Below are positions 33,579 through 37,794 of a stretch of DNA of 64,000 bases, in pieces. The notes beneath the pieces were generated by a model. That model worked only from the letters and a program-made list of their open reading frames with translations. It did no database searches and was not told where the DNA came from. The DNA is from Wickerhamiella versatilis. Lineage: Eukaryota. The DNA lies in the NCBI GenBank assembly GCA_030867685.1, contig JAQOWU010000008.1, forward strand, positions 4,092,001 through 4,156,000. The letters run 5' to 3'. Numbering within the stretch: position 1 is the first letter of the stretch; every line of letters starts with the position of its first letter. Position numbers and translations under genes: made by a program.

Positions 33579-34025
33579 CTATGAATTTGAGGCACCGGAT
33601 GTCGTGGTAGGGAGGCCTTGATCAAAGAAGAGACCTGGCTGCCCGGGCCCGCTAGTTAACCCGCCAAGTTCCTCGTCGCCACCAAATGAGCCAGTGGCCT
33701 TACGGGAGGACCGCCGTTTCACAGAGACAGAGGACCTTCTGCGCTCAATATGCTGATGCGGCTCCAATTCGGTTTCATGCTCGGTGCGTGCGGCACCAAT
33801 TCCTGCTGAGGACATGTCAGGTCGTTCGTCCTTATGGTGGGTATCGGTTAGCCGACGTTCAACGTGCGGGGGAATATCTGACCCTACAGGCTTAAATTCA
33901 GAGTCATTGGTATATGTTGATGCGTCGTGGGAAAGATCATAGGAAAATACACTTGAATTGTCATCAACTACTGTCTCATTGGACAATGATATAATTTCTT
34001 CTTTCCGTTCCTGGTCAAGCGACAT
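33579..34025 (-). CDS. Hypothetical hydrophilic protein, 148 aa
   Basis: ATG-initiated ORF filling the PEP12-TFC3 gap. Disordered composition, RRxS motifs, no recognised family. Confidence 0.6.
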   Translation of the reverse strand: MSLDQERKEEIISLSNETVVDDNSSVFSYDLSHDASTYTNDSEFKPVGSDIPPHVERRLTDTHHKDERPDMSSAGIGAARTEHETELEPHQHIERRRSSVSVKRRSSRKATGSFGGDEELGGLTSGPGQPGLFFDQGLPTTTSGASNS

Positions 34026-34127
34026 TGATACGGCGTAACCGCAATGTCATGACGTAAGCTTTAATATTGCAAGTGGAGTTGGATTACATAACCAAAAAAC
34101 ACCGCCTTGCCGACTATACCACGCACA

Positions 34128-34137
34128 GGTTCGAATC
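34128..34137 (+). promoter_or_regulatory. Isolated Pol III B-box (GGTTCGAATC), ETC-like TFIIIC site abutting the TFC3 start
   Basis: GGTTCGAATC ends 3 bp before the ATG at 34141. The flanks do not form a T-stem, so it is not a tRNA. Confidence 0.6.
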
Positions 34138-34140
34138 GCG

Positions 34141-37100
34141 ATGGATCCTGGGCAGGTGGTCAGCGACATTGTTCGTAATACGGCTCTTCAGGGGAATTTA
34201 GGAGCATCCCTTGACGAATTACTGAAGTTTGCTGAAGATTCTGCGCAGCAATCGCTCGATCAATTTTTTCAGCACGCGATCTGGCGATGGCTCCGCACCA
34301 GTGATCTACGAATAACGGACAATGGCCGCAGCTTGACTCCCGAAGAACTGGAGGAGCCCTTTGAAAAAATCCAGAAAGAGCGGAGTTTACGCTTTTTCGC
34401 ACCTGAGAATACACAATGGGTAACGCTGACCGGTAGGCCCAAGTATGACAACAACCTAGGACAATATCCTTTCGAACTACTCTGCGCTGTGTCACGGGCT
34501 CGAGCCCGTGGTATCACAACGGTGGAGCTCTCTAAAGTGACAGGGCAGGACCCGCGGTCCATTTTCAGCCGAATCAATACACTGATGGAAAATCACCTGG
34601 TAACAAAACAGCCTGTGGTTGAATCTGGGACGCATACTCATCGAATGGTGTTCCATCAGTATATTTCTGAGAACGCTGCACAGCAATCTCAAAAGGTAAC
34701 CAGTGAAGGGTTCAATAAGTCTCAGGTAGCCAAGAAGCTTGTGGAGCTGGTAAAATCCGCACCAAATGGATTGAGGCTCTGCCGCGACCTAACAAATGAA
34801 TTGGGCTTCGAGGATTTCAAGCGAGGCTATCCGATGTTCAGAAGGCTGGTTAAAAAGCTGAGTGTGAAGGGCATAGTTCGGCGCGTGGACGTATATGAGC
34901 CAGAGGATCCAGGGATGCGTTATAGGTGTGTCCAGTATCTGCAAGACTACCGTGAGGACGATGTTCGTGACGAGGAGGAGCTCTCCGATGATGAAGAGGA
35001 TGACACCACTGATGAGCCTGCAGGCCAGGCCCCTGATTTTTCCAAAGTAGTGGTAGCCGAGCAGGCGCTAGCAAATCTTTATTACCCTCTAAGTACACAA
35101 TTATGGGATCTGGTTGCTTCCAGTGGATCGCAGGGTGTTTCGGCAATGCAAATCCATTGCCAGTTGACTGGAACAAGTTACGCCAAGGTTTTCTCCAGGC
35201 TCATAGATGCTGTAGTTCAAGGAAGTGCAAAGCAACCAGCTTATAGGGGACATCTTTCACTTGTGAGGGCAACAGATTTCCAGGCACGGGTGAAGTTCTT
35301 TCGATACTTTCTACCCTCTCCACCAAAGCCTCAATGGGGCGAGTTCTCTCCCCAGAAGTCATGCAATGGCCGTACTTCATTACTGGAAATTGAAAGAAAG
35401 GCGCATACCCCCTTACCGACTCCTCCTAATGTAGGCCAGCTTCCCGATGGTTACGAGATACCAATTTTTCATGGGGACAAGCCCGGAAAAGACGTTAAAA
35501 TTATTCTTTCCGGTTCTACTTCCGCAGCAGCGACGACCAAGAAACGCGGCAGACCGCGTAAAGATGCGCCAAAGCAGCCCGTGCGTCCCCCGAGCCCTGA
35601 GATACCAATGACAAGTGACTCCTGTGTGCCTATCGGGTCTCGAGTCTGGGAAGGAGGCCATCCAGCAAATTCACAGCATACTGCCTCATATTTGCTCTCG
35701 CGTAGCGAGACAGGCTTGTCAACCCCTGCGTCCTCGCGCGGTGCACAAGCAGAGACTGCACCTGAACCAATGTCATCGAAAAATCAGGCTAAATCGAAGA
35801 AAAAGGGGGCTTCAACGAGTAAATCAGAAGTACCAAAACCATCCTCGCCAAAGCCATCGATGTCACCCTCCACCGCAGATCCAAATGCCCCACCTCTTTC
35901 CCTGGCGCTGCAGAAGCGCACAGATATTATAATTGACTTGGTGCGGGCCAGTGGCGGCGCAGCAGAGGGTAAATTCTCGATGTTGAAACGCTTGAATGAC
36001 GTTTATGCGCCACAGAACGGTGGCTCCTTAATAGATCGAAAGACGTTCGAGCGGACTGTTCACATCATGGTTGCACTAGGTAAAATATGTCAACAGTTCA
36101 TTGGTTCACGTCTAGAAGTTACCGGCTCACCTCCTTATGTTCTTCATCTCCCAGAGATAAGTGCTGATGATCCGGTGGTGAAGGAAGCGACCCAGCGCAT
36201 CCTTGACAACGATCATTCGAAGCGTGCGAATCGGCCAAGCGAAGCAGCCCCTGTGATGTCGGGACAAATTTTTACGTTGAGTGGACAAGCCCCGCTCAAA
36301 CGTATACGTCGGCTTAGGGAACCTCAGCCAGTACCTAGTGTTGTCACCTCGGTAGCGAATGCGTCGCCAAGACCAACCTCTCAGCCTGAGCGCCGCGTTT
36401 TTGGTCCAAGAGCATCCGAAGTGGCGAGCTGGTCTGTCTCTACCGCAGCAACTAATTTAAGCACGCAAGCCGCGCGGAAACGACCCCAGCCGGTGGAAGC
36501 GGCACCAGAAAAACGACAAAAGGAAGATGTAGAGGTCGACACAGAACTACTATGGCGTTATGCCATCATCTCGAAGGTTCTTAATGGGAAAAGTCAGTTA
36601 ATTGACTGGGGTACAGTTGTTCGCAACCTCGGCGTGCCAGCTACAAAGCTGAAAAAACTATGGCCTAAAATTCGCGACTTCAAGGGTGGCAAGACCGCAC
36701 AACTAAAAGCGGAGCATGAGTTTGAACGTGCGTTCCTGCTCGGGTACTCGTTGGGGCATTTGGTCTACAATGCGCAGCAAGCTTCTTTGGAGCCGTATCT
36801 TGACTGGTGGGTCTCGCATGCTGATGATGCATCTACCGAGAAGCTTGGAAGCCGTTCCGAGTTTGAAAGTGTCTATGGAAAGATTAAAAGCAATACTAAT
36901 AACTATCCGCTGGATTCCGTTTACACGATGCCATCTATGGTGCGCATGGAGGAATTGCTGGCAGCAACGCCCTTTGGTGTGGAGCATAAAGTTGAAATGG
37001 AGGAAACCGATTTTTCTGATGACGAGAAGGTACTGAGATCCGTTATAGCAGCAGATGAAGATGGATATGATCCGGTGGATGCCACTCGGTTTATTCATGA

Positions 37101-37794
37101 AGCAGGGTTTGATGATGAGCGCCTCAAGCAGACCCTGGATGTTCTCATTGCCAAAAGATTTACTGTGCCCATAGCCAAAGATATGCAGCGGTCAAATCCC
37201 GGCCGCACACATGCACTTCATGATAGAATACACCAGTTTTTATCTTGTAAACTTGAGCCCGTGGATTTGGTGAACGCTACGCATTTTCGAGCCAGTCTTC
37301 TAAACGAACCTCAGTTCCTAGGACGCAATATTGTGGAGCATCAGATGGTTGCATTGATAGAGCTTGCGTCACGTGGCTTTATTGATATAAAACGCGATGC
37401 ACAAGCCACGGGACGACTTCTGCAACATGACTATCGATCGAGGCTGATATCGAAGGACATATTTGATTGCGATGTATATACAGAGCCATCAGCCAACATT
37501 CCCGATGAACCCAGTCCTGTCCCGTCCCCCATACCTTGTGGACATCGATATATCTGGGAGGGTCCAAATGGCGTATGCTCCAGTGCGCTTTGGCGGCAAC
37601 TGCTGGCAAAAATGGGGTTTACTCTTCTTTTACGGCCCCAAATAACTCATGAACGCTTGGCTACTTTATTTTCCTCGGTTTTGACAGTCGATGAGGTTGA
37701 TGCGGTTGTCAACTACTTTGCTGTTTCGAATGCAATACAGCCCGGTGGGCGCTTAACGCCAAACTGGTATTCACAAATAATCATATCTATTTAA
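34141..37794 (+). CDS. TFC3: TFIIIC B-box-binding subunit tau138
   Basis: QWVTLTG...FELLCAVSRARARGITTVELSKVTGQDPRSIFSRINTL (B-block binding winged helix), AT-hook KKRGRPRK, IDRKTFERTV, YIWEG..G.....W near the C-terminus. Confidence 0.88.
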   Translation: MDPGQVVSDIVRNTALQGNLGASLDELLKFAEDSAQQSLDQFFQHAIWRWLRTSDLRITDNGRSLTPEELEEPFEKIQKERSLRFFAPENTQWVTLTGRPKYDNNLGQYPFELLCAVSRARARGITTVELSKVTGQDPRSIFSRINTLMENHLVTKQPVVESGTHTHRMVFHQYISENAAQQSQKVTSEGFNKSQVAKKLVELVKSAPNGLRLCRDLTNELGFEDFKRGYPMFRRLVKKLSVKGIVRRVDVYEPEDPGMRYRCVQYLQDYREDDVRDEEELSDDEEDDTTDEPAGQAPDFSKVVVAEQALANLYYPLSTQLWDLVASSGSQGVSAMQIHCQLTGTSYAKVFSRLIDAVVQGSAKQPAYRGHLSLVRATDFQARVKFFRYFLPSPPKPQWGEFSPQKSCNGRTSLLEIERKAHTPLPTPPNVGQLPDGYEIPIFHGDKPGKDVKIILSGSTSAAATTKKRGRPRKDAPKQPVRPPSPEIPMTSDSCVPIGSRVWEGGHPANSQHTASYLLSRSETGLSTPASSRGAQAETAPEPMSSKNQAKSKKKGASTSKSEVPKPSSPKPSMSPSTADPNAPPLSLALQKRTDIIIDLVRASGGAAEGKFSMLKRLNDVYAPQNGGSLIDRKTFERTVHIMVALGKICQQFIGSRLEVTGSPPYVLHLPEISADDPVVKEATQRILDNDHSKRANRPSEAAPVMSGQIFTLSGQAPLKRIRRLREPQPVPSVVTSVANASPRPTSQPERRVFGPRASEVASWSVSTAATNLSTQAARKRPQPVEAAPEKRQKEDVEVDTELLWRYAIISKVLNGKSQLIDWGTVVRNLGVPATKLKKLWPKIRDFKGGKTAQLKAEHEFERAFLLGYSLGHLVYNAQQASLEPYLDWWVSHADDASTEKLGSRSEFESVYGKIKSNTNNYPLDSVYTMPSMVRMEELLAATPFGVEHKVEMEETDFSDDEKVLRSVIAADEDGYDPVDATRFIHEAGFDDERLKQTLDVLIAKRFTVPIAKDMQRSNPGRTHALHDRIHQFLSCKLEPVDLVNATHFRASLLNEPQFLGRNIVEHQMVALIELASRGFIDIKRDAQATGRLLQHDYRSRLISKDIFDCDVYTEPSANIPDEPSPVPSPIPCGHRYIWEGPNGVCSSALWRQLLAKMGFTLLLRPQITHERLATLFSSVLTVDEVDAVVNYFAVSNAIQPGGRLTPNWYSQIIISI

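Follow-up and report, generated by a model that had tools for sequence, protein, structure and literature searches.

TFC3 encodes tau138, the TFIIIC subunit that binds the B-box, and in Wickerhamiella versatilis a B-box stands directly before its start codon. The locus raises the question of whether this box is an accident, part of a Pol III unit, or a site through which TFIIIC acts on the gene for its own subunit. We examined it within a 64-kb stretch of DNA, hereafter the window, to whose positions unprefixed coordinates refer.

The 1217-aa ORF at 34141-37794 (plus strand), which has lost the ancestral intron 1, matches Pfam B-block_TFIIIC (E 1.2e-21) and DUF6581, as well as S. cerevisiae tau138 in the PDB (E 1e-36). 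By these matches, its product is Tfc3/tau138. The protein clusters with homologues starting in MDP, including a Starmerella bacillaris cluster (tree support 1.0). Its TGQDPRS stretch is unbroken, and among 39 homologues R139 is invariant and S140 nearly so. In S. cerevisiae tau138, residues numbered R139 and S140 read DNA bases (PMC11724288), and because the match is in register, those of the window's protein are probably their equivalents. The same source gives tauB a nanomolar affinity for the B-box, has the box alone governing TFIIIC residence time, and describes a tauB structure that spans ~40 bp (PMC11724288).

The B-box core, GGTTCGAATC, occupies 34128-34137 on the plus strand and agrees fully with tRNA positions 52-61. 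As the initial annotation stated, a spacer of 3 bp, GCG, separates it from the TFC3 ATG at 34141. Using a matrix built from the 28 distinct nuclear tRNAs of this genome, the core scored 14.3 bits, the highest value in the window (runner-up, 11.9 bits) and one that lies among those of the genome's own tRNAs (7.4-18.9 bits), as for the B-box of a type 2 Pol III promoter. The contig G000:C2, a 34-kb, A+T-rich sequence with many tRNAs that represents the mitochondrial genome, was kept out of the matrix. The box does not belong to a tRNA gene: ARAGORN reported no tRNA in the 64-kb window, searches of 33900-34400 against Rfam, including RF00005, yielded no credible RNA family, and G53-C61 is the only pair of a T-stem that could form. 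The same conclusion, no tRNA and no cloverleaf or T-stem, had been drawn by the initial annotation. Similarly, the region folded no better than shuffled sequences (z -0.97 and -0.16). The site resembles the extra TFIIIC (ETC) sites in having a B-box core that is not part of a Pol III gene, and it resembles ETC6 in that the gene whose 5' end it marks encodes a TFIIIC subunit.

RNA reads place this box within the transcription unit. In run X21, five molecules start at 34109 (depth 11), where the depth climbs from ~3 to 28, and the assembled RNA contig of a close relative (organism B, X20) starts at 34114. With the TFC3 5' end near 34109, the B-box lies in the transcribed leader and not in the promoter, at ~+20 to +29 of the transcript. 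This leader, 34109-34140 (~32 nt), is intronless. We considered whether the CAG before the B-box might close a leader intron and ruled this out, as none of four runs contained a joint. The X20 contig is identical to the window over 34114-34421 and X19 shows no difference, so neither is informative on conservation of the B-box.

The leader faces a divergent gene. The two transcript starts, at 34031 (minus strand) and ~34109 (plus strand), are 78 bp apart and enclose an interval of 77 bp (34032-34108). The neighbour, an expressed 148-aa ORF at 33579-34025 (minus strand), reached an RNA depth of up to 160, several-fold above that of TFC3, and its start at 34031 was marked by 42 template-switch loose ends (X24). 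This main 5' end is just 6 nt upstream of the first ATG. By hand count, 10 of the 11 differences from X20 are at third codon positions, and the ORF is a real gene under purifying selection. Its protein is of low complexity, acidic and serine-rich, and a family search found no family for it. Between the divergent starts, at 34049-34056, stands TGACGTAA, which we take to be a CRE-like word and which may be an activator site shared by both genes.

As a word alone, the 10-mer is at chance level. It has 31 exact copies in 9.88 Mb: 8 in Rfam tRNAs, 5 more in ARAGORN tRNAs, 1 in a tRNA-like element and 17 elsewhere. Those 17 non-tRNA copies compare with 17 for the reversed control, in agreement with the caveat of the initial annotation that similar 10-mers arise by chance and that the position is the evidence. 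The case is carried by position and conservation.

The position is rare. In an unselected survey comprising 40 evenly spread 10-kb stretches and the window (464 kb, 231 genes), one of the 230 other genes had an equal or better sense box between -50 and +10, and three had a box of at least 12.2 bits between -300 and +200 on either strand. Across the genome, GGTTCGANYC occurs at 150 sites; of the 134 examined, ~46 were of tRNA type and 88 were not, and only two besides TFC3 placed the motif in sense orientation within 50 nt before an ATG. These two precede a DUF3112 gene and a glycosyltransferase-like gene. Under the wider limits, an ATG fell within -300 to +200 at 29 of the 84 non-tRNA sites analysed (~31 ORFs). 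Taking a gene total of ~5,000, extrapolated from the 464-kb survey, the chance of such a box at any of six TFIIIC genes is ~0.3% for the narrow limits and ~4% for the wide ones, the limits and thresholds of these estimates having been set after the site was seen.

The surveys also revealed other boxes. All three boxes of at least 14.3 bits in the 464 kb are just 5' of ATGs: that of TFC3, a 15.0-bit box in the region L103:2708-2718 (minus strand), 25 nt before the ATG at 2693 of an ABP1-like gene, and a box in L109, 80 nt before an ATG in a divergent intergene. The L103 and L109 boxes are candidate further extra-TFIIIC sites. Non-coding GGTTCGANYC motifs scoring 14.6-16.2 bits are centred at ~1501 of L060, L146, L150, L164, L165 and L182, and the genes that follow them are unrelated (OST-like, TOM70-like, REI1-like, a kinase); these motifs represent either chance occurrences or extra-TFIIIC sites. 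Finally, right after a tRNA-Ala(CGC) gene, an element at L047:190-300 (minus strand; G000:C1, ~81890-82000) combines a perfect B-box with a good A-box and a T5 run and was called by neither ARAGORN nor Rfam; it is either a tRNA in decay or a Pol III RNA that is not listed.

We searched for the box at TFC3 in relatives. A metagenome scan provided one TFC3 locus (L034) among 121 pattern matches; prokaryote and viral collections held no further TFC3 relatives as DNA, and little was gained from word-based protein searches. L034 is Geotrichum-like, its Tfc3 being 31% identical to that of the window and 85% identical to a Geotrichum protein. The L034 gene has a first exon of 70 nt followed by a 155-nt intron (GTATGT, CTAAC, TAG), and splicing this intron out gives an N-terminus that can be aligned with those of the window and Blastobotrys. 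This intron contains GGTTCGATTC in sense orientation (12.2 bits) at L034:5552-5561, at a distance of 155 nt from the ATG. In Markov simulations, a box of such a score arose in 530 bp with a probability of 0.016-0.019.

The letters GAYCC 3' of the box are common to L034 and the window, and we set this likeness aside: agreement is limited to 4 of the 11 flanking letters, close to what chance would give, and the letters are impossible in the two proteins described below. A perfect 18.9-bit B-box at L034:13792-13802, non-coding and at the contig end, carries G22 and C23 of the ETC extension and has no Rfam match. The next gene after TFC3, at L034:10355-11773, is ESC2-like (Rad60-SLD); ETC6 of S. 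cerevisiae sits in the TFC6-ESC2 intergene (PMC3395662), and the correspondence is possibly a coincidence.

Stored proteins offered a second view of relatives, as gene callers at times start upstream and a leader is then translated as an N-terminal extension. Among ~180 stored proteins, six distinct Tfc3 homologues had an extension of at least 18 residues. In P0006, RFDS stands 10 codons before MDP; in P0024 and four members of its cluster, RVRT stands 11 codons before MDP. Both tetrapeptides can encode a sense GGTTCGANYC, and we infer that the underlying DNA would read GGTTCGAT(T)C in P0006 and GGTTCGAACC in P0024, ~30 nt before the ATG. Of the 13-codon stretches without a stop that lie upstream of genes in this genome, 1.9-2.7% contain a B-box-compatible tetrapeptide. 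Both extensions from the window's clade were compatible, against none of four from other lineages; over the full length of all six extensions, ~0.6 compatible tetrapeptides are expected, by which measure two are unremarkable. P0006 and P0024 are 25% identical and lie on opposite sides of the clade's first split. Residues 10-28 of P0006 could also be encoded by DNA that contains, successively, a GTATGT donor, a CTAAC branch point and a YAG acceptor whose end meets the B-box, and perhaps correspond to a short leader intron abutting it.

The expectation of the initial annotation that the box be conserved at TFC3 was borne out in part. All three related cases within the wider clade agree with it, L034 as DNA and P0006 and P0024 as compatible peptides. 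Against it, the box of L034, the sole relative known as DNA, is not at a place homologous to that of the window, and the TFC3 introns of Saccharomycetaceae do not share it: in a supplement of PMC4202332, an intron at the codon position of the L034 intron is kept in 12 of 20 aligned TFC3 genes, and by eye none of the 12 introns contains GTTCRANNC. The Torulaspora intron in that supplement has an A53 variant on the opposite strand. Nine supplementary files of a Yarrowia intron paper contained no TFC3 term.

Are these matches accidents? It is unlikely, in our estimate, that an unselected 10-mer happens to precede TFC3 and that its matches in relatives arose independently. The word frequencies and the estimate for the wide limits given above fit such an origin, as do the different place of the L034 box and the fact that the finding was chosen after the event. 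Equal boxes before unrelated genes, such as the ABP1-like gene, weigh against the feedback reading set out below. Nevertheless, for a chance origin three further coincidences are required, namely the L034 box (~0.02) and the two peptides (0.02-0.03 each), with a similar distance from the start in both peptides. On balance, 34128-34137 is probably a selected TFIIIC site.

What such a site would do is suggested by ETC6. In S. cerevisiae, TFIIIC at ETC6 lowers TFC6 expression ~twofold, a negative autoregulation (commentary, PMC3334521). ETC6 and the window's site are alike in being a tRNA-less B-box at the 5' end of the gene for a tauB subunit, in a divergent intergene, and in the proposed negative feedback of TFIIIC on Pol II, which is shown for ETC6 and a candidate here. 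More generally, the window's box is isolated and has divergent neighbours, as have ETC1-8. The differences are of two kinds. Firstly, ETC6 is at ~-150 to -90 of TFC6, whereas here the gene is TFC3 and the box is within the transcription unit, in the leader or, in L034, in intron 1. Secondly, the core is a perfect tRNA-type box with an incomplete ETC 3' extension, unlike ETC6. Specifically, the eight S. cerevisiae ETC 23-mers share G19, G22, C23 and a pyrimidine at 13 (PMC3395662), and G19, G22 and C23 are read by tau91 (PMC11724288); in the window, G19 and C23 are present, position 22 is C and position 13 is G. Compared by eye, the 10-base extension is incomplete in the window and in L034, both with G19, C22 and C23; the minus-strand reading has none of the three shared letters, and the P0006 and P0024 peptides exclude G19. 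At tRNA position 62, the window has G, not C. In ETC4, ten letters equal the window core read on the minus strand. By analogy, the site is best described as ETC6-like in its putative working and not as an ETC member by sequence. The initial annotation had suggested that ETC6-style feedback may act on TFC3 in this lineage. Its placement of the box, where a gene for a tauB subunit begins, stands; unlike ETC6, the site is in a transcribed leader, or in intron 1 in L034, and not in a promoter, and the ETC 3' extension is missing.

The reading we favour, with somewhat more confidence than doubt, is that a conserved TFIIIC (tauB) site at the TFC3 5' end gives ETC6-like negative feedback on TFC3. Yeasts of the Dipodascomycetes type would have retained the site, with the Geotrichum-like yeast carrying it in intron 1 and the window's clade in the leader. 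Free TFIIIC would bind the TFC3 B-box and cover the start region; its place at +20 to +29 would make it overlap DNA on which Pol II start and escape depend, and in L034 intronic TFIIIC would act as an early roadblock to Pol II. More TFIIIC would then mean less Tfc3.

The same circumstances admit a real TFIIIC site that leaves TFC3 expression out of the loop, acting as a boundary or start-site guard between the divergent promoters, or as a positioner of the +1 nucleosome. This too we regard as unlikely. The 78 bp between the transcript starts would suit it, in S. cerevisiae six of the eight ETC sites are found in divergent intergenes (PMC3395662), and loss of TFIIIC leads to 5'-extended transcripts (PMC4228148). 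However, the box lies past the point where TFC3 transcription starts, outside the interval between the two starts, and nothing about a boundary would make it track TFC3 across lineages. An insulator of the divergent promoter, also raised by the initial annotation, is possible in the window and a poor fit to L034, because the upstream gene there is tandem and the box intronic.

A weak A-box-like 12-mer at 34071-34082 (plus strand), between the two transcript starts and 46 nt upstream of the B-box, brings in a further alternative: a decayed tRNA-type unit of A-box and B-box that loads TFIIIB, and perhaps Pol III, on the shared promoter. Regulation would then come from TFIIIB, or from Pol III transcription that terminates in the T6 run at 34264. 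Precedents exist in ZOD1 and ETC9/YGR033C, A- and B-box-like remnants without a cloverleaf near a Pol II gene, as here (PMC5356446, PMC4228148); these are tRNA-derived, whereas tRNA ancestry is not demonstrable at the window's site. A second analogue is the MIR in intron 1 of mammalian Polr3e (PMC5358760), where, as at TFC3, a gene for the Pol III machinery carries a Pol III promoter element in its 5' part or first intron. According to that source, the MIR lowers expression of its host gene as proposed feedback, in parallel with the proposal here. The MIR is a full antisense unit transcribed by Pol III, whereas at TFC3 the box is sense and we saw neither a transcript nor a strong A-box.

The spacing of 46 nt falls in the type 2 range (31-93 bp), and the score of the 12-mer was equalled at 1 of 84 control sites. 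At 6.7 bits it is nevertheless below all 28 tRNAs (lowest, 9.4 bits), lacks T8, and would occur at ~0.001 per position, and its significance is marginal. The initial annotation saw no convincing A-box, a fair judgement on the score, if not an absolute one given the placement and the controls. The T6 run in the TFC3 coding sequence (34264-34269, plus strand) is the first possible Pol III terminator 3' of the B-box. RNA reads showed no excess of ends at this run and, in two RNA runs ill-suited to short RNAs, no excess of reads from ~34055 to it; depth was low over 34054-34114 and not raised up to 34269, in libraries that lose short RNAs. The L034 box has no A-box at tRNA spacing. A tRNA-Gln relic at the TFC3 B-box, striking by eye, was rejected after alignments as good were obtained in 17 of 84 controls and for 23% of random 65-mers, which makes the likeness to a tRNA 5' half an ordinary one. 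Overall, a Pol III remnant as the regulator is improbable.

Enzymes that modify the T-arm, such as Pus4 and Trm2, recognize a T-loop motif, and a signal of this kind in the leader or intron RNA would suit a site that is transcribed in sense in both the window and L034; we judge it very improbable, since neither has a T-stem, the region folds like its shuffles, and the L034 box is spliced out.

If feedback through TFIIIC operates at TFC3, other genes of the machinery are of interest. In this genome, TFC1, TFC4, TFC7, TFC8, BRF1 and BDP1 had no box of at least 10 bits near their starts; a check of other TFC promoters had been suggested by the initial annotation. TFC4 was located by a TPR search (PDB E 6e-75) after a first candidate proved CTR9-like and a second was also another gene. 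TFC6 was not among 20 WD40 loci judged by their N-termini, nor beside BCP1, and the one WD40 gene with an upstream box was SEC31. ETC6 is itself degenerate, and the GGTTCGANYC survey would miss such a site.

We tentatively suggest, as a possible but doubtful extension of the feedback reading, that TFIIIC dosage feedback is an old and mobile circuit acting as a roadblock to Pol II on TFIIIC's own gene. In Dipodascomycetes-type yeasts it would act on TFC3 from within the transcription unit, lying in the ancient intron 1 wherever this is retained and having been re-created in the leader with the loss of the intron in the window's clade; in the Saccharomycetaceae it would have been handed to TFC6, as ETC6. 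The open full-text literature searched, including PMC3395662, PMC4228148, PMC6182151, PMC11346459, PMC5356446 and PMC3983031, described neither a B-box at TFC3 nor any ETC site in yeasts of this kind.

As far as that literature reached, TFIIIC autoregulation of a Pol II gene is represented by one site in one species. It is possible, though quite doubtful, that a COC site of fission yeast lies at the TFC3 orthologue sfc3; the choice of subunit would in that case not be new, and the circuit would be older. If the feedback reading is true, TFC3 would be a second case, at another subunit, maintained across lineages with 25-33% identity between their Tfc3 proteins, the site having moved between intron and leader. 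Limiting TFIIIC would then be under lasting selection, and the job of the site would be independent of the ETC extension and of a promoter position. It would also give a function to a class of sites of debated purpose, one that a single-base change could test in transformable yeasts.
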